Shown here one piece after another: positions 44,086-60,069 of a stretch of 64,000 nt of DNA. Made by a program: the position numbers and the translations under genes. Location: contig OY762964.1 of assembly GCA_963667035.1 (NCBI GenBank), positions 2,048,001-2,112,000 of the forward strand, written 5' to 3'. How positions within the stretch are numbered: position 1 is the first letter of the stretch; the number at the start of each line of letters is the position of its first letter. Source of the DNA: Candidatus Cloacimonadales bacterium. Lineage in GTDB: Bacteria; Cloacimonadota; Cloacimonadia; Cloacimonadales; JAFGVF01. Below the pieces are notes generated by a model. That model worked only from the letters and a program-made list of their open reading frames with translations, was not told where the DNA came from and made no database searches.

Positions 44086-44119
44086 AAAAGGGGTAGCTGA
44101 TTAGCTATCCCCTTTTTTT
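44086..44119. terminator. Bidirectional terminator between convergent genes
   Basis: AAAAGGGGTAGCT-GATT-AGCTATCCCCTTTTTTT. Confidence 0.7.
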
Positions 44120-45274
44120 CAATTGTTTCTCTTTTAGTAAGCTGTAATATAGATTTTCAATATCATTTACCAGACGTTCTGAAGAAAACATCTCATAGGC
44201 TTTCTTTGAGGCATTAGCACCAATATGAGAGAAATCATCACTGTTTTCCAACCAATTGGATATTGCACTAACAAATCCTTCTAAATCATCTTGATCAAAG
44301 TAAAAGCCATTAATGCCATTCTCAATAAAATCCGAAATACCACCAACATTGGTTGAAAAAACCACTTTCAGTTTAGACATAGCCTCAATGAGAGCTACAG
44401 GAGTACCTTCGTTAATAGATGTTAGCATAACTGCATCAGTTGCTGAATAGGCTAATCCCATGTCTTTAATCATTCCGGTAAAAATAATTCTATCGTTATT
44501 AGTGATATTTGTAGCTTTCTGCTTTATATCTTCTAGTAAATCTCCATCTCCAACGACCATAAAGTAAACATCATCATTCCTCTCAAGAACTTGTTCTGCA
44601 ATCTGAAGGAAGAATGAATGATTTTTAATGTGAGTAACTCTTCCAACTATCGAAACAACTTTCGCAGAAGCAGGGATATTAAACTTAGATCTAAATTGAT
44701 TCCTTTTAGAATCATTTACAACAATTCTTTCAAAATCAAAACCCAAAGGAATTACAACAATCTTCTCCGCAGGTGCAATAGATAGACTTATCAACTCACT
44801 CTTTTGTAACTCACTAATAGCAATAATCTTTGCTGAAAGTGAAGCTAAGATTCTGTCGATGAACACAAATACTCTTGTTTCAAAAGGTGTAAAATATCCA
44901 TTGTAAATGTTACCGTGGTATGTGTGTACTATTACAGGTACACGGCAAAGCCATGCAACAATTCTTGCAATACCACTTTTTGAAAGATGAGTATGCACTA
45001 TATCCGGCTTTTCTTTCCTGATAATCTTTATCATTTCAATTAAAGCAAAGATATCTCTAAAAAATGAAATCTCTCTACTAAGAGTTTTAATACATCTTGG
45101 AGTAATACCATATTCTGTGGCAACATAAGACATATCGGTCTCATGAGGTTCGATAACACCACATACTAGTTTAGATTTGAAATTAGTTTTATCTAATTTT
45201 GATGATAGAATCGACACATGTATTGTTGGTCCTCCAACACAGAGTCTTGTTATACTTCTTAATACTTTATACAT
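44105..45274 (-). CDS. Glycosyltransferase family 4
   Basis: ITRLCVGGP, VHTH, VGR...K, NEGTPVALIEAM. Confidence 0.92.
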   Translation of the reverse strand: MYKVLRSITRLCVGGPTIHVSILSSKLDKTNFKSKLVCGVIEPHETDMSYVATEYGITPRCIKTLSREISFFRDIFALIEMIKIIRKEKPDIVHTHLSKSGIARIVAWLCRVPVIVHTYHGNIYNGYFTPFETRVFVFIDRILASLSAKIIAISELQKSELISLSIAPAEKIVVIPLGFDFERIVVNDSKRNQFRSKFNIPASAKVVSIVGRVTHIKNHSFFLQIAEQVLERNDDVYFMVVGDGDLLEDIKQKATNITNNDRIIFTGMIKDMGLAYSATDAVMLTSINEGTPVALIEAMSKLKVVFSTNVGGISDFIENGINGFYFDQDDLEGFVSAISNWLENSDDFSHIGANASKKAYEMFSSERLVNDIENLYYSLLKEKQLKKRG

Positions 45275-46329
45275 TTGTTCTCCACAAGATTAATGAAAGC
45301 ACTTGCAACTTCTTGTACTTCGATTGAGTTTATACATTTAAAGTTATAGGGACACCCTTTTTGATTACAAGGTGAACAAGGTTCTTTATGAAAAAGAGCT
45401 ATACTATTCATTCCTAAAGGACCGGAAATAGATGGTAAATTTGGTCCCATAAGAGCTATGGTTTTTATGCCACTCATCCATGCAATATGCATTGGTCCAC
45501 TATCATTCCCAATAAAAATCAATGAACTTGAGATAAGCTTTTGAGTTTCTTTAAGATTCATACGACCCGCAAGGTCTTCTATATCATAGTTACTCTTTTC
45601 TTGAATCAACTTGTTTAAAACCTTATCTTGTGGTCCTCCGATTAGCTTAATATCTGATGATTGAATATTATATTTCTCAATCAATAAATTAATCAGACTA
45701 GCAAATCTTTCTGTTGGCCATCTTCTTCCTTCAAAATCTGCTCCTGCATGAATGATCACATTTTTCCCTGACGAGGAATAAAATGAGTTAATATCATTCA
45801 AGCTAACTCCAAGTGATTCTAATATTATATCACTTCTGTTCGCAAGATGCAAATCTCTCATCTCAATCATTTGTGATTCAACTTTATATCCAACAGCTTG
45901 AAACTTGAACGATGATATATATCGGGAAGTAAAGGATACAATATAACCGAGAACTCTTCGAGAGCTAAGAAGTGCTACGATACTATGTCTTAAAGCCCAG
46001 CCAGGAATAATGATTAAATCATATTTTCGTCGGCGAATCATCTTTATAGTTTTGTAATAGCTTTGATGTGGTATTACTTCCTCTAGCTCAACAAACTCGT
46101 TAATCAAATCTGTGTATGAAGAGGGAAAGCAACCAGAAACTTTAAAATTACTACTTTCTTTTAAGGATTTTATGAAAGGAACTAAGCAGATTACATCACC
46201 TATCCCCATTAAGTCAATCACCAAAACAGATTTAATCTCTTTAACAGATTTCGATGGTGTAAGTGTCTTTCTAAGCCAGTAAAGTACTGTAAAAAAAGAC
46301 ATTAATATGTGTTTAATTAGATTTCTCAT
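45259..46329 (-). CDS. Glycosyltransferase family 9 (heptosyltransferase-like)
   Basis: GIGDVI, HAGA...RRWP.ERF, GNDSGPMHIA, GP, CSPC. Confidence 0.9.
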   Translation of the reverse strand: MRNLIKHILMSFFTVLYWLRKTLTPSKSVKEIKSVLVIDLMGIGDVICLVPFIKSLKESSNFKVSGCFPSSYTDLINEFVELEEVIPHQSYYKTIKMIRRRKYDLIIIPGWALRHSIVALLSSRRVLGYIVSFTSRYISSFKFQAVGYKVESQMIEMRDLHLANRSDIILESLGVSLNDINSFYSSSGKNVIIHAGADFEGRRWPTERFASLINLLIEKYNIQSSDIKLIGGPQDKVLNKLIQEKSNYDIEDLAGRMNLKETQKLISSSLIFIGNDSGPMHIAWMSGIKTIALMGPNLPSISGPLGMNSIALFHKEPCSPCNQKGCPYNFKCINSIEVQEVASAFINLVENKCIKY

Positions 46330-47590
46330 TATGTTTGCTTAGCACTTCTATTAGCTGCTGAGTTTGAGATTCTCTTGAAAACTTATGTATGCTTTCATCA
46401 TCTCTGATAATATTGTAGTTCATTATTCTATTTACTGCTTCAAGTAGCATTGCTTCATTATTCGGTTGTGTAGCGACTCCAAGCTTATAATCATTAATAA
46501 GCTTCTCCAGTACTCCATCTTTAGGACATATTGCTAAAATCGGTTTGTTAAGTCTTATATATTCAAATACCTTTCCGGTAATAACTCCTTTAGATTTAAT
46601 ATCATCATTCACTATTAAAACTAATATATCAGCACCAGCTCCCATCTCTAAAGCTTGCTTATGAGATTTATATCCAAGATACTTAAAAAAAGAAAACTTA
46701 CTATTTACATCATTCAATATAGATTTTGGTATAGTACCAATACTTATAAACTGAAAGTCCATAGAGTTCTCTACTTTATGTAACGTCTCCAGAATTGGAA
46801 GTGGAGAGCGTTTATAATCATAAATCTTCCCCATATAAAAAAACGTGAATTTATCGAATTTCATCGGAACAATGTCATTAAAATCATCCTCGTCAAATCC
46901 GTTAAGAATCACTGTACTCTTGGATTTTAACTCGGGTATTATCTCAAAGTATTCCTCAAGTATTTGTTCAGTAGCAACAGTAAAATAATCACATTTCTTA
47001 AGAACCATGTTATCTAGTTTTTGTATTTTTCTGAGTCGAGTTCTGTTAACATTCTCAGAGAGCTTAGGTTCAAACTGCCATGAATCACGATAATCAGCTA
47101 CATAAAAAATTCTCGAGCCAAACTTCTTCTTAAGTTTCAACCCTATAAGTTGTGCAGAGAAAGGATAAGATGTGATAAATACTTTTTCGATACGCTCTTT
47201 TTTAATGACTTTACTTGCTTTATATATTGCAAAAGGAACCCATCCTATCTGTTTATCGTATGGGAAGATAAAATCGTTTACGAGTTTGATTATATTCCAG
47301 ATTATGGATTTTATTAATGAAGGTTCTTGATACTTAACAGAATCCTTGGTTTTAGCTATTGCGTCTCTTGCTTTACCTTTGATTCCCAAACTAGGTGTGT
47401 AATGAACAATAACAGACTTTGGTATATCATTACATAAAGTATAATCCAAAATGCTCTTAACAGGTTTTTTAGGAGTAATGACATGAACTTCATGACCTGC
47501 TTTTGAAAGGTATTTAACAAATTTTAATGCTCTTTGAACGCCACTTTCACCTGTAGGAGGAAACTCGTTTATAATCATTAAAACTTTCAT
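46313..47590 (-). CDS. Glycosyltransferase family 4
   Basis: FPP....GVQR..KFVKYL, DYRD.W, NGFD, GKVFEY. Confidence 0.88.
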   Translation of the reverse strand: MKVLMIINEFPPTGESGVQRALKFVKYLSKAGHEVHVITPKKPVKSILDYTLCNDIPKSVIVHYTPSLGIKGKARDAIAKTKDSVKYQEPSLIKSIIWNIIKLVNDFIFPYDKQIGWVPFAIYKASKVIKKERIEKVFITSYPFSAQLIGLKLKKKFGSRIFYVADYRDSWQFEPKLSENVNRTRLRKIQKLDNMVLKKCDYFTVATEQILEEYFEIIPELKSKSTVILNGFDEDDFNDIVPMKFDKFTFFYMGKIYDYKRSPLPILETLHKVENSMDFQFISIGTIPKSILNDVNSKFSFFKYLGYKSHKQALEMGAGADILVLIVNDDIKSKGVITGKVFEYIRLNKPILAICPKDGVLEKLINDYKLGVATQPNNEAMLLEAVNRIMNYNIIRDDESIHKFSRESQTQQLIEVLSKHNEKSN

Positions 47591-48813
47591 TTTAAACCTT
47601 CTACACGGTTTAATGGTCCTTTGCTTTTATACATCATTACTGTTGCTTTGTAGTGATTATACAACTCTGTATTCTTTCCTAGGAATCGTTCTTCTACTGA
47701 TTTTGCAGCATTTTTACTTAACTGAGCCTTCATATCCGGTTCATTTATCAGCATTTCAAGAGCTTCTTTAATATCATGAGGTGAACTTTTATCAACTAGC
47801 AATCCGGTATCTCGATCTTTAATTATATCCAAAGGACCCCAAGTTCTGGTTGCTATAACTGGTAAACCACAAGCCATAGCTTCTACTAATGCTAATCCAA
47901 ATGGCTCATACAAAGATGGGAAAACCATAACATCAGAGATTTTGTATAGATCAACAAGCTTACGCTGGTGGATATGATTAATGATTGTAAGTTTCTTATC
48001 AATACCCAATTCTTCTGCTTGCAAGATTAACTCATTTTTTAAAGGACCTCCTCCTACAAGAATAAGTTTAATATTGGGTGAATTTAACATAGCAATAGCT
48101 TTTATAATATCAGAATGGGCTTTTCTTTTTATAAAAAAGCCTACAGATAAGACAACGAAATCTTCATCTCTAAGATTAAAATCATGTCTTGAAAGCTTCG
48201 GTTCATTAGTATTGAAAATATTCCCATTATAACTGTTTTGGATAGTTATGCAATTTGCTTGTGGCTGAATCTTTCTTACAAATTCGGTAAAAGGTTTTGA
48301 TACTCCAATAACCGATGAGGCATTTAAAAGTGCTTTTTTATGCAATCTCAAAACTGATGTTTTCTGCATTCTAGCCCCCCCCATCTCAATAGAGTTAGGG
48401 TAGCATTTATACGAATCAGCTCCATGACTAGTTATGATGTAAGGGATACCCCATGCTTTTGATAGAAGCATGGCTGCATGACCTGATGGATACCCATTCT
48501 GTGCATGAATGACATCAAACTTAAGGGAATGATACTTCTTTTTTAACAAAAAATAGATCAATCTGGAACTGACTGATTGCATAATATGCTTTGGAAGAGA
48601 TGGATACACCGTTAATGAATAGAATTTATCTTCCAAACTATACTCAGAAAATTTATTCCTTACTTTCTCTGGATTATGTTTCGAATCACGGAAGTATGTC
48701 CAAGAACCTATATGAACATCAAAGTAGATTTCAATATCGTTCTTCTTCTTTAAATCATTAATCTGATTTTGAAGAAAAGATGAATCGTAGTCGTTTAAGA
48801 ATAGTACTCTCAC
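47587..48813 (-). CDS. Glycosyltransferase family 4 (TuaC-like)
   Basis: HAQNGYPSG, TSHGAD, PSLYEPFGLALVEAMACGLPVI. Confidence 0.9.
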   Translation of the reverse strand: MRVLFLNDYDSSFLQNQINDLKKKNDIEIYFDVHIGSWTYFRDSKHNPEKVRNKFSEYSLEDKFYSLTVYPSLPKHIMQSVSSRLIYFLLKKKYHSLKFDVIHAQNGYPSGHAAMLLSKAWGIPYIITSHGADSYKCYPNSIEMGGARMQKTSVLRLHKKALLNASSVIGVSKPFTEFVRKIQPQANCITIQNSYNGNIFNTNEPKLSRHDFNLRDEDFVVLSVGFFIKRKAHSDIIKAIAMLNSPNIKLILVGGGPLKNELILQAEELGIDKKLTIINHIHQRKLVDLYKISDVMVFPSLYEPFGLALVEAMACGLPVIATRTWGPLDIIKDRDTGLLVDKSSPHDIKEALEMLINEPDMKAQLSKNAAKSVEERFLGKNTELYNHYKATVMMYKSKGPLNRVEGLK

Positions 48814-50054
48814 TTGTTTTTCCTGATCAATGAATAGATAAAAGCATTACTTATTACACTACTAAGTATGTAAATTGTTGTTGTTGAATAGGCTGCTCCA
48901 ATGATGCCAATCTTTTGAATCAAGTATGCATCAAGTATAATATTAGTAACGCCACTAATCAAAGCTACTATTAGATTCCATTTAACTTTGTGAAGAGCTG
49001 CTAATGTGTTTCCGGCAGGTATACGAAAAGTACTTGCAAAGAAAAAGCCAATAATCAATACTCTAAAGGCAGGTACAGCTTCCATATATTTCTCGGTAAA
49101 TATGAGTTTAATTAAAAATGGAGCTCCAAAATAAAGAGTTATGACAATCGCTCCATTAACTAGAGCAAGCATCTTAATTAGTTTTAGATACTTAGTTCTT
49201 AAATACTCTTGATTGTTGATATTTTTGCAGAAATAAGGATAAACAAACGTCATTATCGAAATAGGTAGAAAAGTAAGATTAAAAGGTATCATTGAGGCTG
49301 TTTTATAAAGAGCAACAGCATTACCGGAACTAATAATCTGACCAATTAAATGAGTATCAATTAAGTAAAGAAATTGAGAAATAGCGTTGTTTAGTGTTGA
49401 AAGAAGTGAATACTTGATAAACTCTAATTTATTGATTACTATCCTAGTACTCTTTTCTATTCTCTCTTTATCTAGAATGAATGAAGCAATACTTGTTAGC
49501 ATCCATGTTGAAACAAAAGCTATTGCAAGTCCATTGACACCCCAGAAATAAGCAGATACAATTAAAAGAATTAAATGAGTTATTGCTCTAAAGATTGTCA
49601 AAGTTGAGAACAAGCGATTTTGAAGTCTTCCTCTGTAGTAATTGAGATACCCTTCCGAGTATCCGCTAAATATAACTGCAAAAAGAAGTATTTGTAACAA
49701 GCTCTTACTTTCAGGAATTTTTAAAGGAATAGTATAGATAATTATATAACCTATTACTACAATAACGATATTGGAAGCAAATGATAACTTTTTACCATAA
49801 CTCATATATGATAGACAAGTCTCTTTATCGGAATTCAAACTAACAAACTGGAGAATACCCATATGAAAACCTAAATTCTGAAAGAGAAAGAAAAACATGA
49901 GAAAGTTTAGTGAAAATGCCCATACACCATAATCATTAACAGGAAGTATTCTAACTAAAATAAAAGATGTAGCAAGCATGCAAAACTTCTGTAATACATT
50001 TGCTGTAAAAATATGCCCTAATCCATTCTTAAGTAAATATCTCAATAGATTCAT
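48810..50054 (-). CDS. wzx: Oligosaccharide flippase (Wzx/MOP family)
   Basis: RILPVNDYG, multiple TM segments, IGIIGAAYST; polysaccharide-cluster context. Confidence 0.85.
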   Translation of the reverse strand: MNLLRYLLKNGLGHIFTANVLQKFCMLATSFILVRILPVNDYGVWAFSLNFLMFFFLFQNLGFHMGILQFVSLNSDKETCLSYMSYGKKLSFASNIVIVVIGYIIIYTIPLKIPESKSLLQILLFAVIFSGYSEGYLNYYRGRLQNRLFSTLTIFRAITHLILLIVSAYFWGVNGLAIAFVSTWMLTSIASFILDKERIEKSTRIVINKLEFIKYSLLSTLNNAISQFLYLIDTHLIGQIISSGNAVALYKTASMIPFNLTFLPISIMTFVYPYFCKNINNQEYLRTKYLKLIKMLALVNGAIVITLYFGAPFLIKLIFTEKYMEAVPAFRVLIIGFFFASTFRIPAGNTLAALHKVKWNLIVALISGVTNIILDAYLIQKIGIIGAAYSTTTIYILSSVISNAFIYSLIRKNK

Positions 50055-51682
50055 AGCTTTGAATAAAAACTCAGTGCTTTAAGTAATGATACGACTCTTA
50101 ATCTATCACTAATATTTTCGCTTGAGAAGAGCATGTGTAAATCATCTTGCAATTGTCTATCCTGAACCAGTGTTTCATGTTCCGAATATGAATCATTAAG
50201 AAACAATCTGAAATCACTATTTTTTTTATACCAGTATTCAAATGGATTCATTGATGCGGTTTTTCCTGTCAATCTTCTTTGAATTGCCCATTTTATTCTT
50301 ATTGATTTCTTTTTTAAATGTGAATCAGAGAGTCTGCAACCATATTTCTCCACAATGGTCTTATCTGCTTCAGGTAATTTCTTTAAAATATAGTTTTCCA
50401 GTAGCATTCTTTTATATCTCAATTCAGGACTTGTATGAAATGCTAGAGTAAGAAAATCCTCATTAAGAAATATTGAGCTAACTTCCAGGATGGGATTTCC
50501 AATTAAAAAGGCATTTATCATCCCATTTACAGCCCTATTGTAAAATACAAATAACTCATCGTTAGGATACTTAGAATATTCGTTTAAGTAATCATCTTTA
50601 AAGCGAGAAATCAATACTCTATCTTTGTTAAACAAATCAATAGCTTTATTAGTATGACTTGGTCCTTGTAAATAACCACCAAAGCCTCCTTCACCAAGTC
50701 CGCCTGTATGCATAACAAAAAAGTTACTTGAATTAATATTATTGAGAACAAAAGGTAATCCGGTAGTCCCGTAATAATTAACTAGACCGAAATTAGATTG
50801 AATTGGTTTTTCCCAATCAGTTATAGATTTACAGTTATCAAGAGGATAAAATAGGATGTTATCATTATTAATCTCAGCAAGCTCAAGACTAATTCTGGCA
50901 TCAAGAGAGTCTTTCGCAGCATAGGTAAAGTGTACACAGTTTTCCGTATTATTTCTCTTTAAAAGATAGTATACTACCCTTGAGTCAAGCCCGCCACTAA
51001 GAGTAACTAAATGTTTTCTTTGTTTATAGTTATTCAGGTCAATATCTCTTTGTATAGCTTTTGAAAGGATATCGTCTATGGAGTTAAGTGAATAGTCCAA
51101 GTCGTCTATTTTAGATTCATTACTATACATATGATATCTTTTCTCAATTAATCCGTGTGTAGATATATTCAGAATTGTTCCGGGCTTAACTTTACTAATA
51201 TCTTCGTGTATTGTATTATTACCTAACATATAACCGAAAGTTAGCAATTGATAACAACCGGACAAAGAAATAGTATAAGATAATCCACATTCTTTAATCT
51301 TTTTAAGAATATGTATGTAGTTATTTGAGACGATTACTATATCATTGGATTCGAATAAAAATAGTGGTTTAGTATTAGCTCTATCGGTAACAATCTTAGT
51401 TATACTTCTTCTTTTATCAATCAAAATTAATGAATATCTACCTTCAAGTTTATCTTGGAAGTCTATATCTGATTTCATATATAAATCAATTATTAATTCT
51501 GCTGTGAGTGGGGTATCTATGGATGAAGCTAAATTCTTTCCGTAAACAACGCCCCAGACCAGTAGTTGATATTCAGGACTATTAAATACTATGTAATTTT
51601 GTATTGAATTCTCTCGTAATACACGAACATTATGATTATCATTATACGATTTTCTTTTGTAGATGTATTCAAAAATAAACAT
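50051..51682 (-). CDS. Asparagine-synthase-related (PP-loop) protein
   Basis: LEGRYS, TDR...KPLF, TLSGGLDSR, MNPFEYWY. Confidence 0.85.
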   Translation of the reverse strand: MFIFEYIYKRKSYNDNHNVRVLRENSIQNYIVFNSPEYQLLVWGVVYGKNLASSIDTPLTAELIIDLYMKSDIDFQDKLEGRYSLILIDKRRSITKIVTDRANTKPLFLFESNDIVIVSNNYIHILKKIKECGLSYTISLSGCYQLLTFGYMLGNNTIHEDISKVKPGTILNISTHGLIEKRYHMYSNESKIDDLDYSLNSIDDILSKAIQRDIDLNNYKQRKHLVTLSGGLDSRVVYYLLKRNNTENCVHFTYAAKDSLDARISLELAEINNDNILFYPLDNCKSITDWEKPIQSNFGLVNYYGTTGLPFVLNNINSSNFFVMHTGGLGEGGFGGYLQGPSHTNKAIDLFNKDRVLISRFKDDYLNEYSKYPNDELFVFYNRAVNGMINAFLIGNPILEVSSIFLNEDFLTLAFHTSPELRYKRMLLENYILKKLPEADKTIVEKYGCRLSDSHLKKKSIRIKWAIQRRLTGKTASMNPFEYWYKKNSDFRLFLNDSYSEHETLVQDRQLQDDLHMLFSSENISDRLRVVSLLKALSFYSKL

Positions 51683-51689
51683 ATCTCAA

Positions 51690-52982
51690 TCAATTAACAT
51701 CTTCAAAACAAATCTTTTGCTGAGATATTAGTAAGTTTCTCACATTGAAAGAGAATGCAAAACTTGTTAAATAAGCTATATGTATCCACATAACAAAGAT
51801 ATTAAACATACTTGAAGGCAAATTGCTTACTACAAGAAACACAAATACTGAAATCAGATTGAATTCTGATAGCACTTTTAGTCGTCCCTTTGAATAAATC
51901 ATAATAAGAAACAATCTTATTATCAAAACTGCAATAAATATCAAAAATGGGATAACAACAAACAGACCGAAATTTGCTACCAATTCAAACAAATAACTGT
52001 GGGGATTTTCAATCCAGTCAGTATCTCCAAAGAATCCTTTTTTTGTATGGTAATCAAAGTTACCGGCACCTACGCCTATGAAGTGGCTATCTCTACAAAG
52101 ATTAATAGCTCTTTTAACCATGTTGATTCTTATCTGAGTTGAGCCAATGTTATAAGTCTCTGTTTCCGAGGAAACAGATGTATAAAGCCCCACACAGTAT
52201 TTCTCTGCTAATTCAAACTGCTTAGGATATTTTAAACTAAGGGAGTAAATCAACGCAATTATTATAGCAATAGCTATTGATATTACACGCCAGTTTGAGT
52301 ATTTTATAAAGGTATACGCATAAAGAGGGACTAAAGCGATTAATGCTATTCTTGCTCCCTGAACGATAATGATTATAAAACTTACAAGTAAGGCAATAAG
52401 GAATAGTAACTTAAAAAAATTGTTTTTACTAACAGCATACTTATAGCAGATAATTGGAGTAATAAATGATGTCACCATTGCTTGAATATTCTCACCATAG
52501 AATAAACCGGTTGGATTAGGTAAGATTGAGTCAAAGTGACGAGAAGTCGGGAGATGACTAAATGACGCCATTTCCCAGATACACACTAGATTGTAAATTA
52601 TGAATACTACTACTAAAAGATTTGTATATTTCTTCTGCTCTGAGAAATCTTCATGCAGATTATACATCACAAGATAGAACAAGCTTGCATGCACTAATAT
52701 CATATTAACATGCTTAATTCCGAAATCAAATGATTGAGCCCAAAACAAACTTGCCATTGAGTAAAACACATAAATTATAAAAAATTGGTTTACTGAGAAT
52801 AATTTAAAAGACTTAAGAGATCCTTGAGAGAGCATGAATTGATAAGCAATCAATGCTACATTCAAAAGAATTGAGATTTTTACAAGCTGAATTTTTATTG
52901 GGAAAAAAGTAACTAAAATAAGAACAAAATAAAGTATCACACTTATGTTCTTTAATAGTGCTGATGAATCCTTAATACGCAT
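51690..52982 (-). CDS. O-antigen ligase/polymerase family membrane protein
   Basis: About 11 TM segments, GAR, S..IR, GVGAGNF, NPHS..ELVANFG. Confidence 0.85.
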   Translation of the reverse strand: MRIKDSSALLKNISVILYFVLILVTFFPIKIQLVKISILLNVALIAYQFMLSQGSLKSFKLFSVNQFFIIYVFYSMASLFWAQSFDFGIKHVNMILVHASLFYLVMYNLHEDFSEQKKYTNLLVVVFIIYNLVCIWEMASFSHLPTSRHFDSILPNPTGLFYGENIQAMVTSFITPIICYKYAVSKNNFFKLLFLIALLVSFIIIIVQGARIALIALVPLYAYTFIKYSNWRVISIAIAIIIALIYSLSLKYPKQFELAEKYCVGLYTSVSSETETYNIGSTQIRINMVKRAINLCRDSHFIGVGAGNFDYHTKKGFFGDTDWIENPHSYLFELVANFGLFVVIPFLIFIAVLIIRLFLIMIYSKGRLKVLSEFNLISVFVFLVVSNLPSSMFNIFVMWIHIAYLTSFAFSFNVRNLLISQQKICFEDVN

Positions 52983-54164
52983 TTATGAAAAGAATATCTT
53001 TCTTGCCTGTATCAGTTTCATTTTTTTATCTTGGGGAACATATTCAATCAATATACTGATAACAATTGAAAAGAATAAAGCAATAAAGAAAGAAACAACA
53101 CAAACAATTGCTCTTTTAGGTTTAACTCTTAATCCTGGTAAATCAGCATTAGAGATAATGTTAATAGTTGGCAAGTCTTTCAGCTCTTCCATTTTAGCAA
53201 GTTCATATTGAGGATAAAGGAATTCATAAATCTTTCTATTTATCTTCAATTTCATTTCCAGAATTTGAGACTGCATAGCAATTGAAGGGATATCATTAAT
53301 CGGAACTATAAATTCGGAAATTCCACCGACAGTCTCCATATTATCAATCTTCTTCTGGAGTTCATCCCTCTTAAGAACTAACTCATTTAACATTGGAGAT
53401 TTATCACCATAGAGTTCTTTACTAATAGTAATTTGAATATTGGTTTTTGTTAACTCTGCGACTAAATCAGAATACATGGTTAAAATTTTTGATGTCTGAT
53501 CTTCTATTGAAATCATTTTGCTATCTTCTTTCTGAGCCAAGATTTGTGCAGTTAACTCGTTAAACTCTTTATCAATCTCTTGAACTCTCTCTTCCATAAA
53601 GATACGTTTCAGTTTACCTTTAGTCATGTTTTCATTCTGATTATAGTAAACTAATTCAGTCAAAACGTATTCAACTATATCTTTAGATAGTTGCTTATCA
53701 AAAGTATTAGCGGAAACAGTAATTGAATTCGTTTCTTTATCATAAAAGATACCAAATGTCTCTTTTTTTAACTTCTTTATAGCTTTATCCATTTCCTTAA
53801 GAGAATCTTTTTCGGAAATCTCGTAATAAGTTATCAAATCAAATTTTCTTACAATCTTCTTTGCAAAATCCCTACTATCAAGAATTAAAAGGTTATTCAT
53901 TGATTCTTCAGAAGCAAATCCACCCATGAAATCTAATCCCATTCCACCTAAAATAGAATTACCCATACTTGCACTCATATCATCTGAAAGAGTAATAAAA
54001 GTTGCTGATGACCCCCAAACTTCCTTGGCTAGTAAACTATATGCTACAGCTGCGATACTAACTACAATTGTAATAATAAAAATCAACCATTTATGCTTTG
54101 CTATAGTTATTAATATATCAAATACATCAAAATCTGCATCATTTGTTCTAGTAGTATTATTCAT
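52983..54164 (-). CDS. Polysaccharide chain-length determinant (Wzz/GumC family)
   Basis: N-terminal TM, coiled-coil periplasmic region, A.LP...VKPKR before the C-terminal TM; start probably ATG 54164 (AGGA RBS). Confidence 0.88.
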   Translation of the reverse strand: MNNTTRTNDADFDVFDILITIAKHKWLIFIITIVVSIAAVAYSLLAKEVWGSSATFITLSDDMSASMGNSILGGMGLDFMGGFASEESMNNLLILDSRDFAKKIVRKFDLITYYEISEKDSLKEMDKAIKKLKKETFGIFYDKETNSITVSANTFDKQLSKDIVEYVLTELVYYNQNENMTKGKLKRIFMEERVQEIDKEFNELTAQILAQKEDSKMISIEDQTSKILTMYSDLVAELTKTNIQITISKELYGDKSPMLNELVLKRDELQKKIDNMETVGGISEFIVPINDIPSIAMQSQILEMKLKINRKIYEFLYPQYELAKMEELKDLPTINIISNADLPGLRVKPKRAIVCVVSFFIALFFSIVISILIEYVPQDKKMKLIQARKIFFS

Positions 54165-54221
54165 AAGCTTCCTATCATCTTTCATGTTGTAATTATGTTA
54201 TTGTTCTTAAGTATACAATTA

Positions 54222-54299: not shown

Positions 54300-54507
54300 A
54301 CTCACAAATCTACTTTTTATCTGTTGATTTTGTTGGCAAGTAAAAAGTATCAAACTACCAATATCTGCATTGCAAAACACTAATTACACCGTTATCATAT
54401 TGAATTACCATCATTATTCATCTGTCTACACTAACAATTATCCTTGCTATAAATTAGGATTTACACATTTTCCGATTATAATAACAAGAAAGAGTATTGG
54501 AGGATAG

Positions 54508-55524
54508 ATGAAGAAGATAAATTTGATATTAATCCTATTTTCCCTAATAGGAATTCTATCAGCTCAAAATATTCTACTTTGGGATAACGACAACTATTCC
54601 AGCTTCGTTCAGCCCGGTGATGAATACTATACCGGTACGGAAGTTGCTGTTGGTCGCTCATTGCTAAGAAACGGGCTGACATTTGAAGAAACAACCATAT
54701 TACCCGGAGATTTATCGCAGTATGACGCTGTCTTTGTGACATTAGGCGTTTACTGCCTTTCCTGAGGAGTCACTCCTCCGGGATCAATAGGCTCGGTCGA
54801 GCTAAACATTTTAGTTAATTACTTAAACCAAGGTGGTGCACTTTATATTGAAGGTGTTGATTTTGTTAATGATTACTCATCAACACCATTAATTGATTTC
54901 TTTGGTGTTACAATAGGTAGTACAGGATTAGGCGGAGGAATAGAACAACTCACAGGTTTAGACGGTTCTATTGCCGAAGGTCTTGAATATCAATATCTAA
55001 CCGGAGAGTATCCTGATTATTTAGTAGATGAGATTGTTTTGAACGGAGCAACAGCCGTGTTAAACTCAAATGATGGTAATGTAAGAGTAACTTCTTATCA
55101 ATCAGGAAGCTATCGCACTATTGCTTCTGCTATAGCTATGGGTGGTATTTATGATAGCGAAGAACATACTAGAGCGGATTTGATGGAAAGATACCTAAGG
55201 TTTTTAATACCTGCTATTTCCAATAATGAAGATACTCAGCCAATAGCTAAAGTTGAACTGCATTCTGCTTACCCTAATCCGTTTAATCCTACAACAAATA
55301 TTAGCTTCACATTACCTGAAAATCAAGCTTACTCTTTAAGTATCTATGATATAAAAGGGAGACTTGTTAAAGTCCTTTCAGAAGGATTTGGTAACAAAGG
55401 AATGAACCGTTTTGTCTGGAACGGCACTAACAATGAGAATCAAGCAGTTGGTAGCGGTGTATATCTTTGCAGACTTAATACAAAAGGTAGTTCTAAAACC
55501 ATTAAATTAACAATGATTAAATAA
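54508..55524 (+). CDS. Putative secreted selenoprotein (CxxU) with FlgD-like CTD; 338 aa if TGA 54763-54765 is decoded
   Basis: RBS GGAGG, signal peptide; the single in-frame TGA in ...LGVYCLS*GVTPPG... is the only stop before 55524; C-terminal AYPNPFNP...IYDIKG...WNG...SGVYL...KLTMIK. Confidence 0.75.
54773..54801 (+). promoter_or_regulatory. Candidate bacterial SECIS element
   Basis: CUC-CU-CCGGG-[AUCAAUAGG]-CUCGG-UC-GAG stem-loop; upper stem begins 12 nt after the UGA; locally GC-rich. Confidence 0.5.
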
Positions 55525-55540
55525 CTTTTAAGCTATATAC

Positions 55541-55573
55541 AAAAGAAGGGTAGTTGATTTCAACTACCCTTTT
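55541..55573. terminator. Bidirectional terminator
   Basis: AAGGGTAGTTG-ATTT-CAACTACCCTT flanked by A and T runs, between convergent genes. Confidence 0.85.
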
Positions 55574-55589
55574 CATCTATAATTATAAT

Positions 55590-58589
55590 CTATTTTATCA
55601 ATCTGAATGTTCTTATTTCGTAAGGAGTAAAACCAAGGTCGATGCAATTAGTGTTTTCAGCAACAACTTCATTTCCTTCTTCAAGTAAATTGGTCTCAAT
55701 AATCTTACTCCAGCTTGTATCAGAGAAGAAGGATACATCAACAGGACGACCGCATGTTTCGTACAATCTGACAATGACATCTTTTCCATCTTCTGAAGGT
55801 TTTACAGTCTCAATTTCCACTTGTATAGCAGGATTTGCATTGTTCTGTTCTATTCTGAAACCTGTTCGATCCGAAATGTTTCTGTTATCACCTAAGTGTA
55901 TAAGAACAGGAGAGTTTAACTCATGTGCAGATTGCAAGACTTCAGAATGAGTATAATCCCCCATGTGAGGAAGATATGCAAAAGTAAACTTATGAATCCT
56001 CATATCACATTCTGCATCAGGATGTTTAGGGCTTCTGAGAAGGGTTAACTCCATCACGTTATCTCTGATTCTGTGACCATACTTACAATCGTTTAACAAG
56101 GCAAATCCATAATCCGGTTCGGAAAGATCAGCAAATCTATGAGCTACTGTTTCAAACTTAGCAGCATCCCAACTTGTATTATCATGAGTTGGACGTTTTA
56201 AGCTACCATATTGAATCTCGTAAGTCGCCTCTCCTTTGTGGATTGTTGTTTCTGCTCCAACACGAAGCATCTTTCTATCTTCTTTCCAATCAACTTCAGT
56301 CTCAATAGTCACTTGTCTGGAGTTCTCTTCAATAGAGACAATCTGTGAGACATTTGATTTCCCTACAGTGAACTCCAATCCAACTTTTATTAAATCATCT
56401 GATTGAGCAATTATTTTTGCAGAGATTAGTTTTGCTTGTTCCGGAATAGTTTCCATGTAGAAGTGGTTAATATCCCAAGCGTCCCAATTATTAGGTTTAT
56501 CCTCCCATAGAAGGATAGTGTTTGCTCTGCTTTTAATAGTCTCACGATGTGCTTCTTTATCATAGATTGAAGTTATCTCACCGGTTTCAGGAGAGAAATC
56601 TACACTAATAACATTGTTCTCAAGGTGGAAATCAAATTCCATTTCCTCTTGTTCTAGAGATGAAACACCGGGTAATGTTTTTAGTTCTTCTTTATCAATC
56701 TTAGTATAACCCATGGCAGGAATAGTAACAGGTACAGTGATTCCATCTTCCAGCATAACAAGTAGTTCTTCTCTATCCCAGCTAAGAGTATTAACTAAAT
56801 AATAAGCCTCTTCCCCATCTCCAAAAAGCTTTTTAAGCATCGAATCTTTAATCTCACTCAATTTAGTTAGATTCTCTTCGGACATTTTGTGTGCATCTTC
56901 ATAAACCCATTTGATTGAAGAACCAGGAAGTATGTCATGGAATTGATTCAGAAGTGTATTCTTCCAAATCTTATCTATTTCTTCTTTTGGCATCATATCG
57001 GATAATACAGCCAGGAACTCAACATCTCTGAGTGTTAGTTCCAATAACCTGTTATACTTCTTCATTAATGCTTGCGAAGTATATGTTCCTCTATGATATT
57101 CCAGATACAATTCTCCTACCCATGTAGGTAGTTTTTCTTTAGGAATTCTGTTAATCTTTTCAAAGAACTCTTCAGCGAAAGCAAATTTGAACTTAGGAGT
57201 ACCTTCAAGATTCTGTTGTCTTTTTCCAAATTCAATATGCAGTCTTCCCGGTCCGCCACCACCGTCTCCGATACCATACAGATTCAAGAATTCATCGGAA
57301 ACATCTGATTGGGCGTACCTATCAGCACTCTTTCTTAACTGCTCAGGCCAATTAGCAAGATTATAGTCATTAGTCGGGAGGAAGTGAGTCAAAATTTGTG
57401 TACCGTCAATTCCTTCCCAATAGAATGTATGATGAGGGAACTGATTAGTTTCATTCCAAGATATCTTCTGAGTCATGAAATAATCAACTCCACATTTCTT
57501 TAGAATCTGAGGTAATGCTGCGGAATAGCCAAAGACATCAGGCAACCATAGATTTCTGACATCTTTTCCAAACTCATCCATGTACAACTTCTTACCATAC
57601 AAACATTGGCGGACAAGTGCCTCACCACCGCTTATATTCATATCAGGTTCTACCCACATAGCACCTTGAAGCTCCCATCTTCCAGCCTTCACAGCTTCTT
57701 TCACTTCTTCAAAGAGTTGAGGATATTCCTCTTTTACCCATTCGTAAAGCTGAGGTTGAGATGCTCCGAATTTGTATTCAGGGAATTCATCCATCATTCT
57801 TAGAGCAGTAGAGAATGTTCTACCGCCTTTTCTTTTAGTCTCTCTTACAGGCCATAGCCAGCCTAAATCTAAGTGAGCATGTCCAATAGAGTAAACAGTC
57901 AGTTCACTTGCATTGGCAGGCTTATTTAAAAGCTCTTTTGTTATATCTAGACACTTCTTGATTCCGGTTCCATCTTTGTAACAATTACAAACCTCATTGA
58001 TGCCATATAGTATCTTCTGGAATCGTGTCGAATTTCTATCCAATTGTTCAGCGAGAGCAATAAGAACTCTCAAATCTAGGTTAAGTTCATATATGTCTTC
58101 ATTTAGACATGCAATCTCGGCTTGTTTGAGAATGTATTTTTCATCTTTAGCTCCAAACAAATCATTAGCACCTGCATCAAACATCAAATCAATATCTTCT
58201 CCGCCTTCCGCATATTCAAACAAAGGAACCCATGCTTTACCCACATGATGATGGTCATCCCTTTTATAAGTAATTGCCACGTGAGGTGAACCATCTTTAA
58301 AGTATAAGCCTTCACCTGCTATATCAATAATGACACCAACTTTTCGCCCTTTAAACTCTTGTGGAACTTTACCCTTAAACTTAAACCAAGCACATCCCCA
58401 ATTGTCAGCCCAGCAATCACCGATATTAATGGGAGTATATTCCGCTTTTATAGCTTCTTCATAAGAAATAGGAACTATTTTATCGTATATGTAGCTTACA
58501 TTCAAGTCCACACCTTTTGTATAGCGTAGATTGAATAGTTCATAAGTGAGTCTTCTTGCTCTATCAAGATAAATATTAATATTCTTCAT
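55590..58589 (-). CDS. Alpha-mannosidase, GH38
   Basis: GHAHLDLGWLWP, WLPDVFGY, G.GDGGGGP, GELYLEYHRGT, NQFHDILPGS. Confidence 0.95.
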   Translation of the reverse strand: MKNINIYLDRARRLTYELFNLRYTKGVDLNVSYIYDKIVPISYEEAIKAEYTPINIGDCWADNWGCAWFKFKGKVPQEFKGRKVGVIIDIAGEGLYFKDGSPHVAITYKRDDHHHVGKAWVPLFEYAEGGEDIDLMFDAGANDLFGAKDEKYILKQAEIACLNEDIYELNLDLRVLIALAEQLDRNSTRFQKILYGINEVCNCYKDGTGIKKCLDITKELLNKPANASELTVYSIGHAHLDLGWLWPVRETKRKGGRTFSTALRMMDEFPEYKFGASQPQLYEWVKEEYPQLFEEVKEAVKAGRWELQGAMWVEPDMNISGGEALVRQCLYGKKLYMDEFGKDVRNLWLPDVFGYSAALPQILKKCGVDYFMTQKISWNETNQFPHHTFYWEGIDGTQILTHFLPTNDYNLANWPEQLRKSADRYAQSDVSDEFLNLYGIGDGGGGPGRLHIEFGKRQQNLEGTPKFKFAFAEEFFEKINRIPKEKLPTWVGELYLEYHRGTYTSQALMKKYNRLLELTLRDVEFLAVLSDMMPKEEIDKIWKNTLLNQFHDILPGSSIKWVYEDAHKMSEENLTKLSEIKDSMLKKLFGDGEEAYYLVNTLSWDREELLVMLEDGITVPVTIPAMGYTKIDKEELKTLPGVSSLEQEEMEFDFHLENNVISVDFSPETGEITSIYDKEAHRETIKSRANTILLWEDKPNNWDAWDINHFYMETIPEQAKLISAKIIAQSDDLIKVGLEFTVGKSNVSQIVSIEENSRQVTIETEVDWKEDRKMLRVGAETTIHKGEATYEIQYGSLKRPTHDNTSWDAAKFETVAHRFADLSEPDYGFALLNDCKYGHRIRDNVMELTLLRSPKHPDAECDMRIHKFTFAYLPHMGDYTHSEVLQSAHELNSPVLIHLGDNRNISDRTGFRIEQNNANPAIQVEIETVKPSEDGKDVIVRLYETCGRPVDVSFFSDTSWSKIIETNLLEEGNEVVAENTNCIDLGFTPYEIRTFRLIK

Positions 58590-60069
58590 TCTTAACCTCT
58601 ATTTTATCAATAACTTGTTGCCTATAAGATTCAAAATCATAACCTGATTCTCTTAGGTATTTTAAATGCTTCTCAATGACACTTTTAAAACTCTCAAAGT
58701 CTTTATTCTCATCAGTTGTCCAAACTATCTCTGAAAGAGAGAAGATTCGGGGTATCAACATATATTCAAACTCATTTTCCGTATAAATATGCTCAGTCCA
58801 GATATTAGCTTGAGCTCCCAGAATAAGCTTACGCTGTTCAGTATTCAATTCTTCCGGTATTGGATTATATTTATAGACATCTTCCCAGGAAAGAATAGGC
58901 AAATTAACTTTCTTATCTTCCGGGAAAGGTCTTTTATCAAAGTAGAGATTAGCCCAAGGTGTCATAATCGCTTGGTTACCGTGTTGAACTGCAGCCACAC
59001 CACCTCCAATTCCTCTCCAAGACATTACAACGGCTGTATCCGCCAGTCCACCTTCAAGTATTTCGTCCCAACCTATCAGAGCTTTACCTTTTGATAGGAG
59101 ATGCTTCTCAATTTGTCTAATGAACCAACTTTGGAGTTCTTCTTCATTCTTCAAATCTTCTTCTTGAATACGCTTCCGGCAATCAGGACATTCCTTCCAT
59201 CTGGTTTTCGGACATTCGTCCCCCCCTATATGGAAATATTTACTAGGGAATAACTCGCAAACTTCATCAATAATATCTCTCAGGAACTCAAAAGTACTGT
59301 CTTTCCCTGCACAATAAACTTCATCCGATACTCCCCAGTCATTCCATACTTCCATTTCCATTCCGGTACAAGAGTACTCAGGATAGGCAGAAAGAGCTGC
59401 CTGAGCATGCCCTGGAAGCTCTATTTCTGGAATCACATCAATAGATAGTTTCTCGGCATAAGCAACTACTTCCTTGATTTCCTTTTGTGTATAGAAACCA
59501 CCATAAACAGTTCCATCTTTCTCTTTCCTCCAACCGGCATGAGAAGTTAGTTTAGGATACTTCTTTATCTCTATTCTCCAGCCTTGATCCTCAGTTAAAT
59601 GCCAATGGAACTTGTTCAGCTTATACAAAGCCATTAAATCAAGTTGCTTTTTTATAAATTCAATAGAGAAGAAATGCCTACAAACATCAATGTGTAAGCC
59701 TCTCCACTCAAAAGCGGGAAAATCATTAATGATTCCACATTGGATTATAGTCTCTTCTTTATCCTTCGACACCACCATTTGTCTTAATGATTGCAAAGCA
59801 TAAAAGACACCTGTATAGGTTGAAGCGGCTATTCCAATTGAGTTCTCTATAACGGAGAGCTTGTATTCTTCCGTTTTCATAAAATCATTCTTCAGAATAT
59901 GAATCAGAATGCCACTGTCTTTAACGGGTTTCTTACCAAGTATATCTGTAAGATGTTTCTCAATAGTATCAAGTCTGTCATGAAAATGAGTACTATCTAC
60001 TCTATATTCTTGCAGTCTTATTATATCAGGTAGAGTATGAACTTCTTTAGGTTGAGGAATAATTCTCAT
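58576..60069 (-). CDS. Beta-N-acetylhexosaminidase, GH20
   Basis: WRGLHIDVCRHF, HWHLTEDQGWR, PEIELPGH, HIGGDE, IWTE. Confidence 0.95.
   Translation of the reverse strand: MRIIPQPKEVHTLPDIIRLQEYRVDSTHFHDRLDTIEKHLTDILGKKPVKDSGILIHILKNDFMKTEEYKLSVIENSIGIAASTYTGVFYALQSLRQMVVSKDKEETIIQCGIINDFPAFEWRGLHIDVCRHFFSIEFIKKQLDLMALYKLNKFHWHLTEDQGWRIEIKKYPKLTSHAGWRKEKDGTVYGGFYTQKEIKEVVAYAEKLSIDVIPEIELPGHAQAALSAYPEYSCTGMEMEVWNDWGVSDEVYCAGKDSTFEFLRDIIDEVCELFPSKYFHIGGDECPKTRWKECPDCRKRIQEEDLKNEEELQSWFIRQIEKHLLSKGKALIGWDEILEGGLADTAVVMSWRGIGGGVAAVQHGNQAIMTPWANLYFDKRPFPEDKKVNLPILSWEDVYKYNPIPEELNTEQRKLILGAQANIWTEHIYTENEFEYMLIPRIFSLSEIVWTTDENKDFESFKSVIEKHLKYLRESGYDFESYRQQVIDKIEVKNEEY

Follow-up and report, generated by a model that had tools for sequence, protein, structure and literature searches.

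A probable exported selenoprotein family with a CxxU motif in a class-I-GATase-like domain of Cloacimonadota

We analysed a window of 64,000 nucleotides (nt) from a Candidatus Cloacimonadales bacterium (assembly GCA_963667035.1, contig OY762964.1, positions 2,048,001-2,112,000), in which the stretch 54508-55524 is most likely a single gene for an exported selenoprotein, with a probability of roughly 0.87. The UGA at 54763-54765, the only one in its frame, is strongly supported by sequence evidence as a selenocysteine (Sec) codon decoded by the SelA/SelB/SelD/tRNA-Sec system of the organism, and the product is very probably a selenoprotein. The two short genes called here are almost certainly parts of a single one, and its predicted product would found a new selenoprotein family, common in one phylum of uncultured anaerobes and absent from the catalogues compared here. 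The original prediction, made from the letters of the window alone, had proposed a secreted selenoprotein of an undescribed family with the Sec in a loop of a Rossmann/class-I-GATase-like (glutamine amidotransferase-like) domain, followed by a hairpin resembling a selenocysteine insertion sequence (SECIS) and a C-terminal sorting domain. Its statements agree with the results below, apart from a part of the hairpin claim. The features of the gene are the following.

54498-54502, plus strand: Shine-Dalgarno-like GGAGG, 5 nt upstream of the ATG at 54508 (read directly)
54508-55524, plus strand: whole predicted selenoprotein gene, 338 codons and a TAA, with one putative Sec-TGA (frame reading)
54508-54564, plus strand: signal-peptide-like leader, residues 1-19, with MKK, a hydrophobic core and LSA (by eye)
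54565-55242, plus strand: class-I-GATase-like (flavodoxin-like alpha/beta) domain, residues 20-245 (AlphaFold2 model and fold matches)
54754-54765, plus strand: C83-L-S-U86 motif, with TGC at 54754-54756 and the putative Sec codon TGA at 54763-54765 (sequence and homologue columns)
54764-54778, plus strand: hairpin GAGGAG-UCA-CUCCUC overlapping the UGA, probably not a SECIS element (folding)
54790-54803, plus strand: candidate upper hairpin of a bacterial SECIS element, GGCUC-GGUC-GAGCU, with the loop at 54795-54798 (folding and conservation in the genus)
55270-55509, plus strand: type IX secretion C-terminal sorting domain, residues 255-334 (PF18962, PF13860, TIGR04183 and a fold match)

The TGA column and the selenocysteine machinery

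Two open reading frames (ORFs) are called in this stretch, one at 54508-54765 with 85 amino acids and a TGA end, the other at 55039-55524 with 161 amino acids, a TTG start and a TAA end. Both share one frame, and the 91 codons between them (54766-55038) contain no stop and no ATG, GTG or TTG. Re-reading the sequence confirmed that the sole interruption of the frame is the TGA in TAC TGC CTT TCC TGA GGA (Y82 C83 L84 S85 U86 G87). The read-through product (P0001) has 338 amino acids and stops at the TAA at 55522-55524. No Shine-Dalgarno-like motif was found ahead of the TTG at 55039. An assembly error had been named as one way in which the TGA could be false; in contigs from two samples of one study (four public runs) the letters across the stretch are identical, with no alternative letter, a support that is weak because these runs are possibly the source of the assembly and not independent of it.

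The 226-residue N-terminal domain (N-domain) was searched in six frames against 232 genomes of the phylum, 84 of which contain matches, 127 in all. Exactly one in-frame TGA is found in 95 of the 127 matches and none in 32, and the TGA form is present in 74 of the 232 genomes, often with several copies each. All 31 distinct TGA-bearing sequences that were aligned share a single TGA column. A separate scan of species-representative genomes placed the TGA at the same column in 38 of 38 TGA-bearing loci, a set which overlaps with the 31 sequences. Among the matches without a stop, nine are strong and cover the full domain. These come from six genomes, and the eight inspected all have Cys at the TGA column; the Cys forms used in the comparisons below are L014, L041, L046, L019 and L024. 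Cys is the standard partner of Sec in alternating homologues. The remaining 23 stop-free matches are weaker, and four of them stop short of the TGA column. Those inspected are distant paralogues with a loop six residues shorter (consensus L-G-I-Y-S-N-N-H-V-L-T) and neither Cys nor Sec.

The motif of the subfamily is [Y/W/F]-C-x-x-[U/C]-G-x-T-P-P-G, in which C83 and column 86 are invariant in a 33-sequence alignment. In the domain tree the Cys state is nested among Sec forms and two changes are needed, of which the well-supported branches force one only. The other three genomes of the genus have full-length homologues with one TGA each, at 59-66% identity. Moreover, the stretch between the two ORFs is conserved as protein at 30-70% identity across the 84 genomes. 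Scoring the aligned position in homologues, as had been suggested for checking the prediction, gives TGA, or Cys in the stop-free close homologues, at one column.

The genome of the window encodes the machinery for Sec decoding that the prediction called for, with selA, selB, selD and tRNA-Sec all found. Its SelA match has a value of 2.7e-130 and selB adjoins selA. The selD gene (L003, G000:C1:2882124-2883047, plus strand) scores 379 bits against a cut-off of 125 and has one in-frame TGA itself, which fits active Sec decoding. The tRNA-SeC has the anticodon TCA. TGA terminates 143 of the 1265 ORFs of at least 300 codons in this genome; it is an ordinary stop elsewhere and a reassigned code is thus unlikely. 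The reading of the TGA as a Sec codon is upheld by these three observations together, that is the alternation of TGA and Cys at one column, the presence of the machinery and the otherwise ordinary use of TGA as a stop. In the phylum as a whole, 107 of 232 genomes have SelA, among them 68 of the 74 with the TGA form. In the largest family (f4, 98 genomes) both SelA and the domain are missing from every genome (0/98 each). As related genomes are not independent, this tracking of SelA and the TGA form is an association and not a test.

The downstream hairpin and other readings of the TGA

The bSECIS model describes bacterial SECIS elements by an apical loop of 3-9 nt with a G at its first or second position, an upper stem of 4-16 base pairs (bp), a distance of 16-37 nt between the UGA and the loop, and a minimum free energy of -7.5 kcal/mol or lower (PMC13188914). 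The hairpin at 54790-54803 has a 5-bp stem and the loop GGUC at 29 nt from the UGA, and is within the rules for loop, stem and spacing. All four members of the genus have it in identical form, and in L028 and L030 it is extended by further pairs. GGCUC-GGUC-GAGCU recurs in L039 and in the Cys form L014, and L049 has the same stem with the loop GGGC.

Most Sec forms have a hairpin of 5-7 bp with a loop CGUGA, GUU, GUG, AGUU or GGUC, which starts 20-21 nt past the UGA, and in this common register the hairpin is formed by the codons for G-x-V-x-S/T. In the 31-sequence alignment, 85.2% of the 155 cells of the common helix are paired, while controls slid along the alignment pair at most 61.3%. Changes on both sides of a pair are found in 25 cells compared with 9.1 in column shuffles, of which none out of 500 reached 25, and the covariation score is 0.507 against 0.231. 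The paired changes also alter residues (T/S, V/N, I/N, A/G and A/S at two codons), which points to selection on the RNA. Furthermore, a hairpin fitting the stem, loop and spacing rules is found in 28 of 31 Sec forms when a stem of at least 5 bp is demanded, compared with 7.8 of 31 on average and 16 at most in shuffles of the 57 nt downstream. Rfam gave two chance matches only at E <= 10. A short hairpin in the coding region downstream of the UGA probably directs Sec decoding. Of the SECIS-like hairpins in play, the candidate at 54790-54803 is conserved, and the one touching the UGA at 54764-54778 is not conserved within the genus. The latter was rejected as a SECIS element, as L028 and L030, two of the genus's four members, do not keep it and the distance from the UGA to its loop is too short.

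Several observations weigh against a Sec codon with its own SECIS element at this site. The isolated hairpin at 54790-54803 folds with -5.4 kcal/mol, short of the -7.5 demanded by the bSECIS model, and has a competing fold. In the window and its genus the hairpin lies three codons (9 nt) further from the UGA than in most relatives, and it has no covariation of its own because it is invariant within the genus. RNAalifold found no consensus pair in the alignment of the 31 Sec forms. The hairpin is also kept in five of five Cys forms (those named above), so it is not specific to Sec and could partly reflect the peptide G-x-V-G-S/T; in the Cys forms it may be a relic. Two full-length proteins present in Logan assemblies only, P0126 and P0004, have Trp aligned with the TGA column in the contexts C-S-G-W-G and Y-R-C-W-G, which may be a TGG substitution or a TGA read by a gene caller with a TGA=Trp table. 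No SelA match was obtained in 6 of the 74 carriers, which are metagenome-assembled genomes (MAGs) of 59-96% completeness. In the AlphaFold2 model, confidence within the domain is lowest at residues 81-90 (pLDDT 72, with Cys replacing Sec). Lastly, none of the public runs carrying the locus is recorded as RNA.

That the TGA is a true stop, leaving either a pseudogene or an 85-residue secreted peptide next to a separate 161-residue protein with the sorting domain, is highly improbable. ORF calling with table 11 does yield exactly these two ORFs, and public collections hold both N-terminal pieces of 91-102 residues and C-terminal pieces (P0002 and P0128). Yet the two ORFs are separated by 91 open codons without a start codon, the TTG at 55039 lacks a Shine-Dalgarno motif, and the stretch in between is conserved as protein in 84 genomes and folds as the core of one domain which spans the TGA. 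Pseudogenes in decay would also not be expected to keep a stop at one column in 95 matches and a Cys in the others. The UGA might otherwise be read through as Trp, Cys or Arg by near-cognate decoding, or TGA might be reassigned locally or lineage-wide as in codes 4 and 25. The two Logan-only proteins with W at the TGA column speak for this. We consider such a readthrough or reassignment improbable, since a gene caller using a TGA=Trp table may have produced the W calls, TGA ends 143 of 1265 long ORFs in the genome, homologues alternate with Cys, and a covarying hairpin lies at SECIS distance. The TGA forms moreover track SelA (68 of 74 carriers, 0 of 98 genomes in f4). The reading that we prefer is therefore the one given at the outset, with the UGA decoded as Sec.

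Fold, export and possible roles

The AlphaFold2 model was built from a 41-row alignment with the Sec modelled as Cys and has a mean pLDDT of 87.5. Residues ~19-245 form a three-layer alpha/beta domain of the GATase-like type. The best match by VIA-align is domain B of a family 42 glycoside hydrolase (GH42; PDB: 5xb7_A) with Z 17.4 and a root-mean-square deviation of 3.1 over 192 aligned residues, followed by STM3548 (PDB: 2gk3_A, Z 17.2) and a 'GATase1-like protein' (PDB: 3rht_A, Z 16.8). Among the further matches are 4oif, likewise a GH42 domain B, the ThuA-like 4jqs and 1t0b and the IFT52 N-domain 5fms, with Z scores of 16.0, 14.8 and 13.9 in this group. True amidotransferases such as 2ywj, 1kxj and 1ka9 have Z scores of 12-14, against 15-17 for the non-catalytic look-alikes. 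Foldseek agrees, with GH42 domain B, STM3548 and IFT52-N at E 1e-8 to 1e-6. Searching the family profile against PDB sequences gave no meaningful match, the best being spurious with E 0.019, and a search of the ESM Atlas with the natural Cys homologue P0122 gave unnamed clusters only. The fold is shared with the non-catalytic modules over ~185-200 residues at an identity of just 11-17%.

C83-x-x-U86 lies in a 17-residue loop (79-95) between the central strand 74-78 and the helix 96-107, which the model places at the C-terminal edge of the parallel sheet. This edge is the usual location of the functional site in such folds. Sec-free relatives of the domain have a loop shorter by six residues at this place. 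In contrast to the present protein, the modules of GH42 domain B, STM3548, 3rht, the ThuA-like proteins and IFT52-N do not have the C-x-x-U-G-x-T-P-P-G loop. None of the GATase-like modules was retrieved as a selenoprotein, whereas the protein described here is predicted to be exported with a type IX secretion system (T9SS) C-terminal sorting domain (CTD). In the 33- and 41-sequence alignments, none of the columns that are invariant or at least 90% conserved is a His, and E115 is invariant; a catalytic triad of the GATase type is thus without support. A thioredoxin fold around the motif was considered and rejected, as the model is a GATase-like alpha/beta domain with the motif in the loop after strand 74-78. 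The model, Foldseek and VIA-align agree with the proposed Rossmann/class-I-GATase-like fold.

The protein is probably exported by the T9SS, as judged from its termini and the genes of the genome. The CTD is matched by PF18962 (6.8e-9, 36.3 bits against a cut-off of 27, residues 255-334), PF13860 (2.9e-8) and TIGR04183 (1e-10, 41.4 bits against a cut-off of 23), and residues 245-338 match the CTD of PorU (PDB: 6za2_B, VIA-align Z 11.5). A similar N-terminal leader is seen in homologues by inspection. Our search for the T9SS machinery covered PorU, SprA and CTD frames. It found PorU with 615.5 bits against a cut-off of 420, a SprA-like gene (SprA_N, 51.4 bits against 27) and 129 frames with a sorting domain, which together make type IX export plausible. 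The leader read by eye, the CTD profiles of type A and these genes bear out the predicted export. In longer homologues the same domain is combined with choice-of-anchor-D/HYDIN-type immunoglobulin-like (Ig), NIDO-like, MAM or CARDB domains, always with a CTD at the end, an arrangement typical of surface proteins.

Besides the gene in the window, the same genome has two further genes with a signal-like leader, a T9SS CTD and one in-frame TGA each. These are L110 (1-1869; G000:C1:1142257-1144125, plus strand), with 622 amino acids, and L111 (1-2931; G000:C1:726758-729688, minus strand), with 976 amino acids. Their motifs are W-U-G-Y-C-P and T-U-G-F-C-P, located ~34 residues from the start, and Pfam names only their Ig, MAM and CTD parts. 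They share the leader, the single TGA and the T9SS CTD with the present protein and, like it, are cut in two by annotation. They differ from it in that the putative Sec lies in a thioredoxin-type motif right after the leader, in a domain unrelated in sequence to the GATase-like one.

This UxxC redoxin family is found in 105 of the 232 genomes of the phylum. It is free of stops where the GATase-like family has Cys, in family f2 (g21 and g27) and in G030. Both families are stop-free in G030, G031, G036, G041, G046 and G050, and SelA is kept in all six. This looks like a correlated switch from Sec to Cys in two surface families, where the Cys of the redoxins is deduced from the absence of a stop. 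Both families being in the Cys state in the same two lineages (f2 and G030) fits a shared role.

In the mechanism that we propose, passage through the inner membrane would be mediated by the leader, and the T9SS would bring the protein to the surface of the cell or into the medium. At that location the Cys/Sec pair could be a selenenylsulfide/selenol-thiol centre with redox activity, or could bind a metal or chalcogen as a thiolate-selenolate site. Provided that the protein is a selenoprotein, the chances of a putative oxidoreductase role are about even. The alternative, in which the protein is a selenoprotein and its Cys/Sec pair binds a metal or chalcogen (e.g. Hg, Cu, Ni, selenide or polysulfide) at the surface, is less likely and is proposed with reserve. 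The two roles cannot be told apart with the present results, and both are inferred only.

What favours binding is the location outside the outer membrane indicated by the CTD and the T9SS genes, where there is no obvious reductant to recycle a redox enzyme. The motif also lies in a flexible loop, unlike that of thioredoxins at the N-terminus of a helix, and the invariant or near-invariant acidic residues E115, D73 and D174 could complete a binding site. Known CxxU/UxxC selenoproteins include metal-binding families (Table 1 in PMC13188914). On the other side, the two predicted UxxC selenoproteins with thioredoxin motifs would be exported by the same genome as possible redox partners, and sulfide from the habitat may be a reductant.

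More tentatively, Cloacimonadota might display a whole set of T9SS-exported selenoproteins, in which the GATase-like CxxU scaffold works with the UxxC surface selenoproteins. A C-x-x-U loop longer by six residues would then have been put into an otherwise non-catalytic GATase-like surface module, and the set would form an extracellular selenium-based system for redox or for chalcogen/metal handling.

The gene stands alone on the plus strand, between a polysaccharide cluster and two glycoside hydrolase genes. The cluster (44105-54185, minus strand) has nine genes for surface polysaccharides, with glycosyltransferases, a flippase, a Wzy-like ligase and a Wzz-like chain-length protein. On the other side lies a pair of a GH38 alpha-mannosidase and a GH20 hexosaminidase (55590-60069, minus strand). 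No redox partner is found close by in this neighbourhood. A promoter scan gave as many sites as expected from shuffles. One further feature lies between the convergent gene ends.

55546-55571, no strand assigned: 11-bp G+C-rich hairpin between convergent gene ends, a possible two-way terminator (prediction, called on the minus strand only)

This hairpin begins 22 nt past the TAA of the gene, not past its TGA.

Relation to known families and significance

No Pfam or NCBIfam model covers the N-domain, and all NCBIfam matches at E <= 0.1 are of the CTD type (residues 246-337). The curated selenoprotein families of NCBIfam (among them NF004836, NF049945, NF049953, NF041197, NF049942 and NF045500) do not match P0001 at E <= 0.1, nor do the Pfam families DUF4159, ThuA and Glyco_hydro_42M at E <= 1. 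A sub-threshold DUF4159 match is found in the distant paralogue P0142, elsewhere in the protein. In the table of 119 prokaryotic selenoprotein families of a 2026 review (PMC13188914) there is no evident family with such a fold, motif and location, which accords with the claim of an undescribed family. The only class-I-GATase-type entry that we saw among the 119 is of the NF004836 type. Its motif is GxUxG and its Sec is the catalytic nucleophile of a true amidotransferase, whereas the protein here has CxxUG and no invariant His or triad. The same source lists a CxxU selenoprotein of the cell envelope, likewise located outside the cytoplasm, which belongs to the beta-barrel receptors (PMC13188914). 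P0001 does not match it.

Literature searches for selenoproteins in Cloacimonadota, in the T9SS or among GATase-like/ThuA proteins gave no description of such a protein. The texts of PMC13188914 and PMC12013277 contain no mention of Cloacimon-, T9SS, sorting or secret-, and the searched part of the BSepDB paper (PMC13326102) none of Cloacimon- or secret-. BSepDB analysed Cloacimonadota genomes (Table S1) and detects members of known families only (PMC13326102).

Two sets of related domains were observed along with the family. A broader Sec-free domain (P0141, P0142, P0161, P0176 and others) is marked by the loop L-G-I-Y-S-N-N-H-V-L-T together with a conserved Y-M-E-G-G-D-T-W. This domain is without a Pfam model and is found inside giant T9SS surface proteins near PKD, malectin and MAM domains; in P0161 it stands beside a C25 (gingipain-type) peptidase. 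Separately, the Ig-like domain that comes after the Sec domain in long homologues (L025, 1495-3711) matches NF041425, 'OS_HP2 family (seleno)protein', below the threshold, with 41.4 bits against 100. It also matches DUF1573 and has no TGA within it. DUF1573 is listed as a selenoprotein family (PMC13188914).

The Cys homologues, for example P0122 (MDN5355058.1, a 'large repetitive protein' of Cloacimonadota), have 34-43% identity to the present protein and likewise carry a T9SS CTD. Their loop is the same with Cys for Sec (C-x-G-C-G-x-T-P-P). They differ by additional choice-of-anchor-D/HYDIN-type Ig and NIDO-like domains, which make them longer.

Among 1.84 billion cluster representatives searched, 601 matched at E <= 0.001. 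Of the best 150 we classified 149, leaving out P0003. Among these 149, 61 start within a few residues after the Sec column and two end just before it, so that pipelines do split the gene, as had been anticipated. The other 86 span the column, and of these six have CxxC, one has CxxW (P0126) and 79 are without the motif. Named members are titled 'hypothetical protein' or 'large repetitive protein'. By their record titles, the carriers are almost wholly Cloacimonadota, with Candidatus Zophobacter franzmannii as the closest relative that has a name. MAGs labelled Zixibacteria and Bacteroidetes also contain single Sec-form loci. The Sec forms L062, L063 and L070 come from MAGs titled 'Armatimonadota', where L062 and L063 are the contig ranges of L034 (G161) and L036 (G160). 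As these genomes are placed in the phylum of the window, the 'Armatimonadota' labels look unreliable.

Decoding by the standard bacterial system is of a known kind, and what is unusual is the scaffold and the cellular location. The protein would add a selenoprotein family with a class-I-GATase-like, non-thioredoxin fold and a location as surface T9SS cargo, which are not listed in the catalogues and papers searched. Since gene calls in public records break at the Sec codon in nearly all copies, databases hold hundreds of fragments of it. For annotators, C-x-x-U-G-x-T-P-P-G together with a hairpin with a G-containing loop ~20-30 nt downstream could be used to repair the gene calls. Selenium biology would gain from the family a case in which the extracellular function of a Sec/Cys pair can be put to the test.

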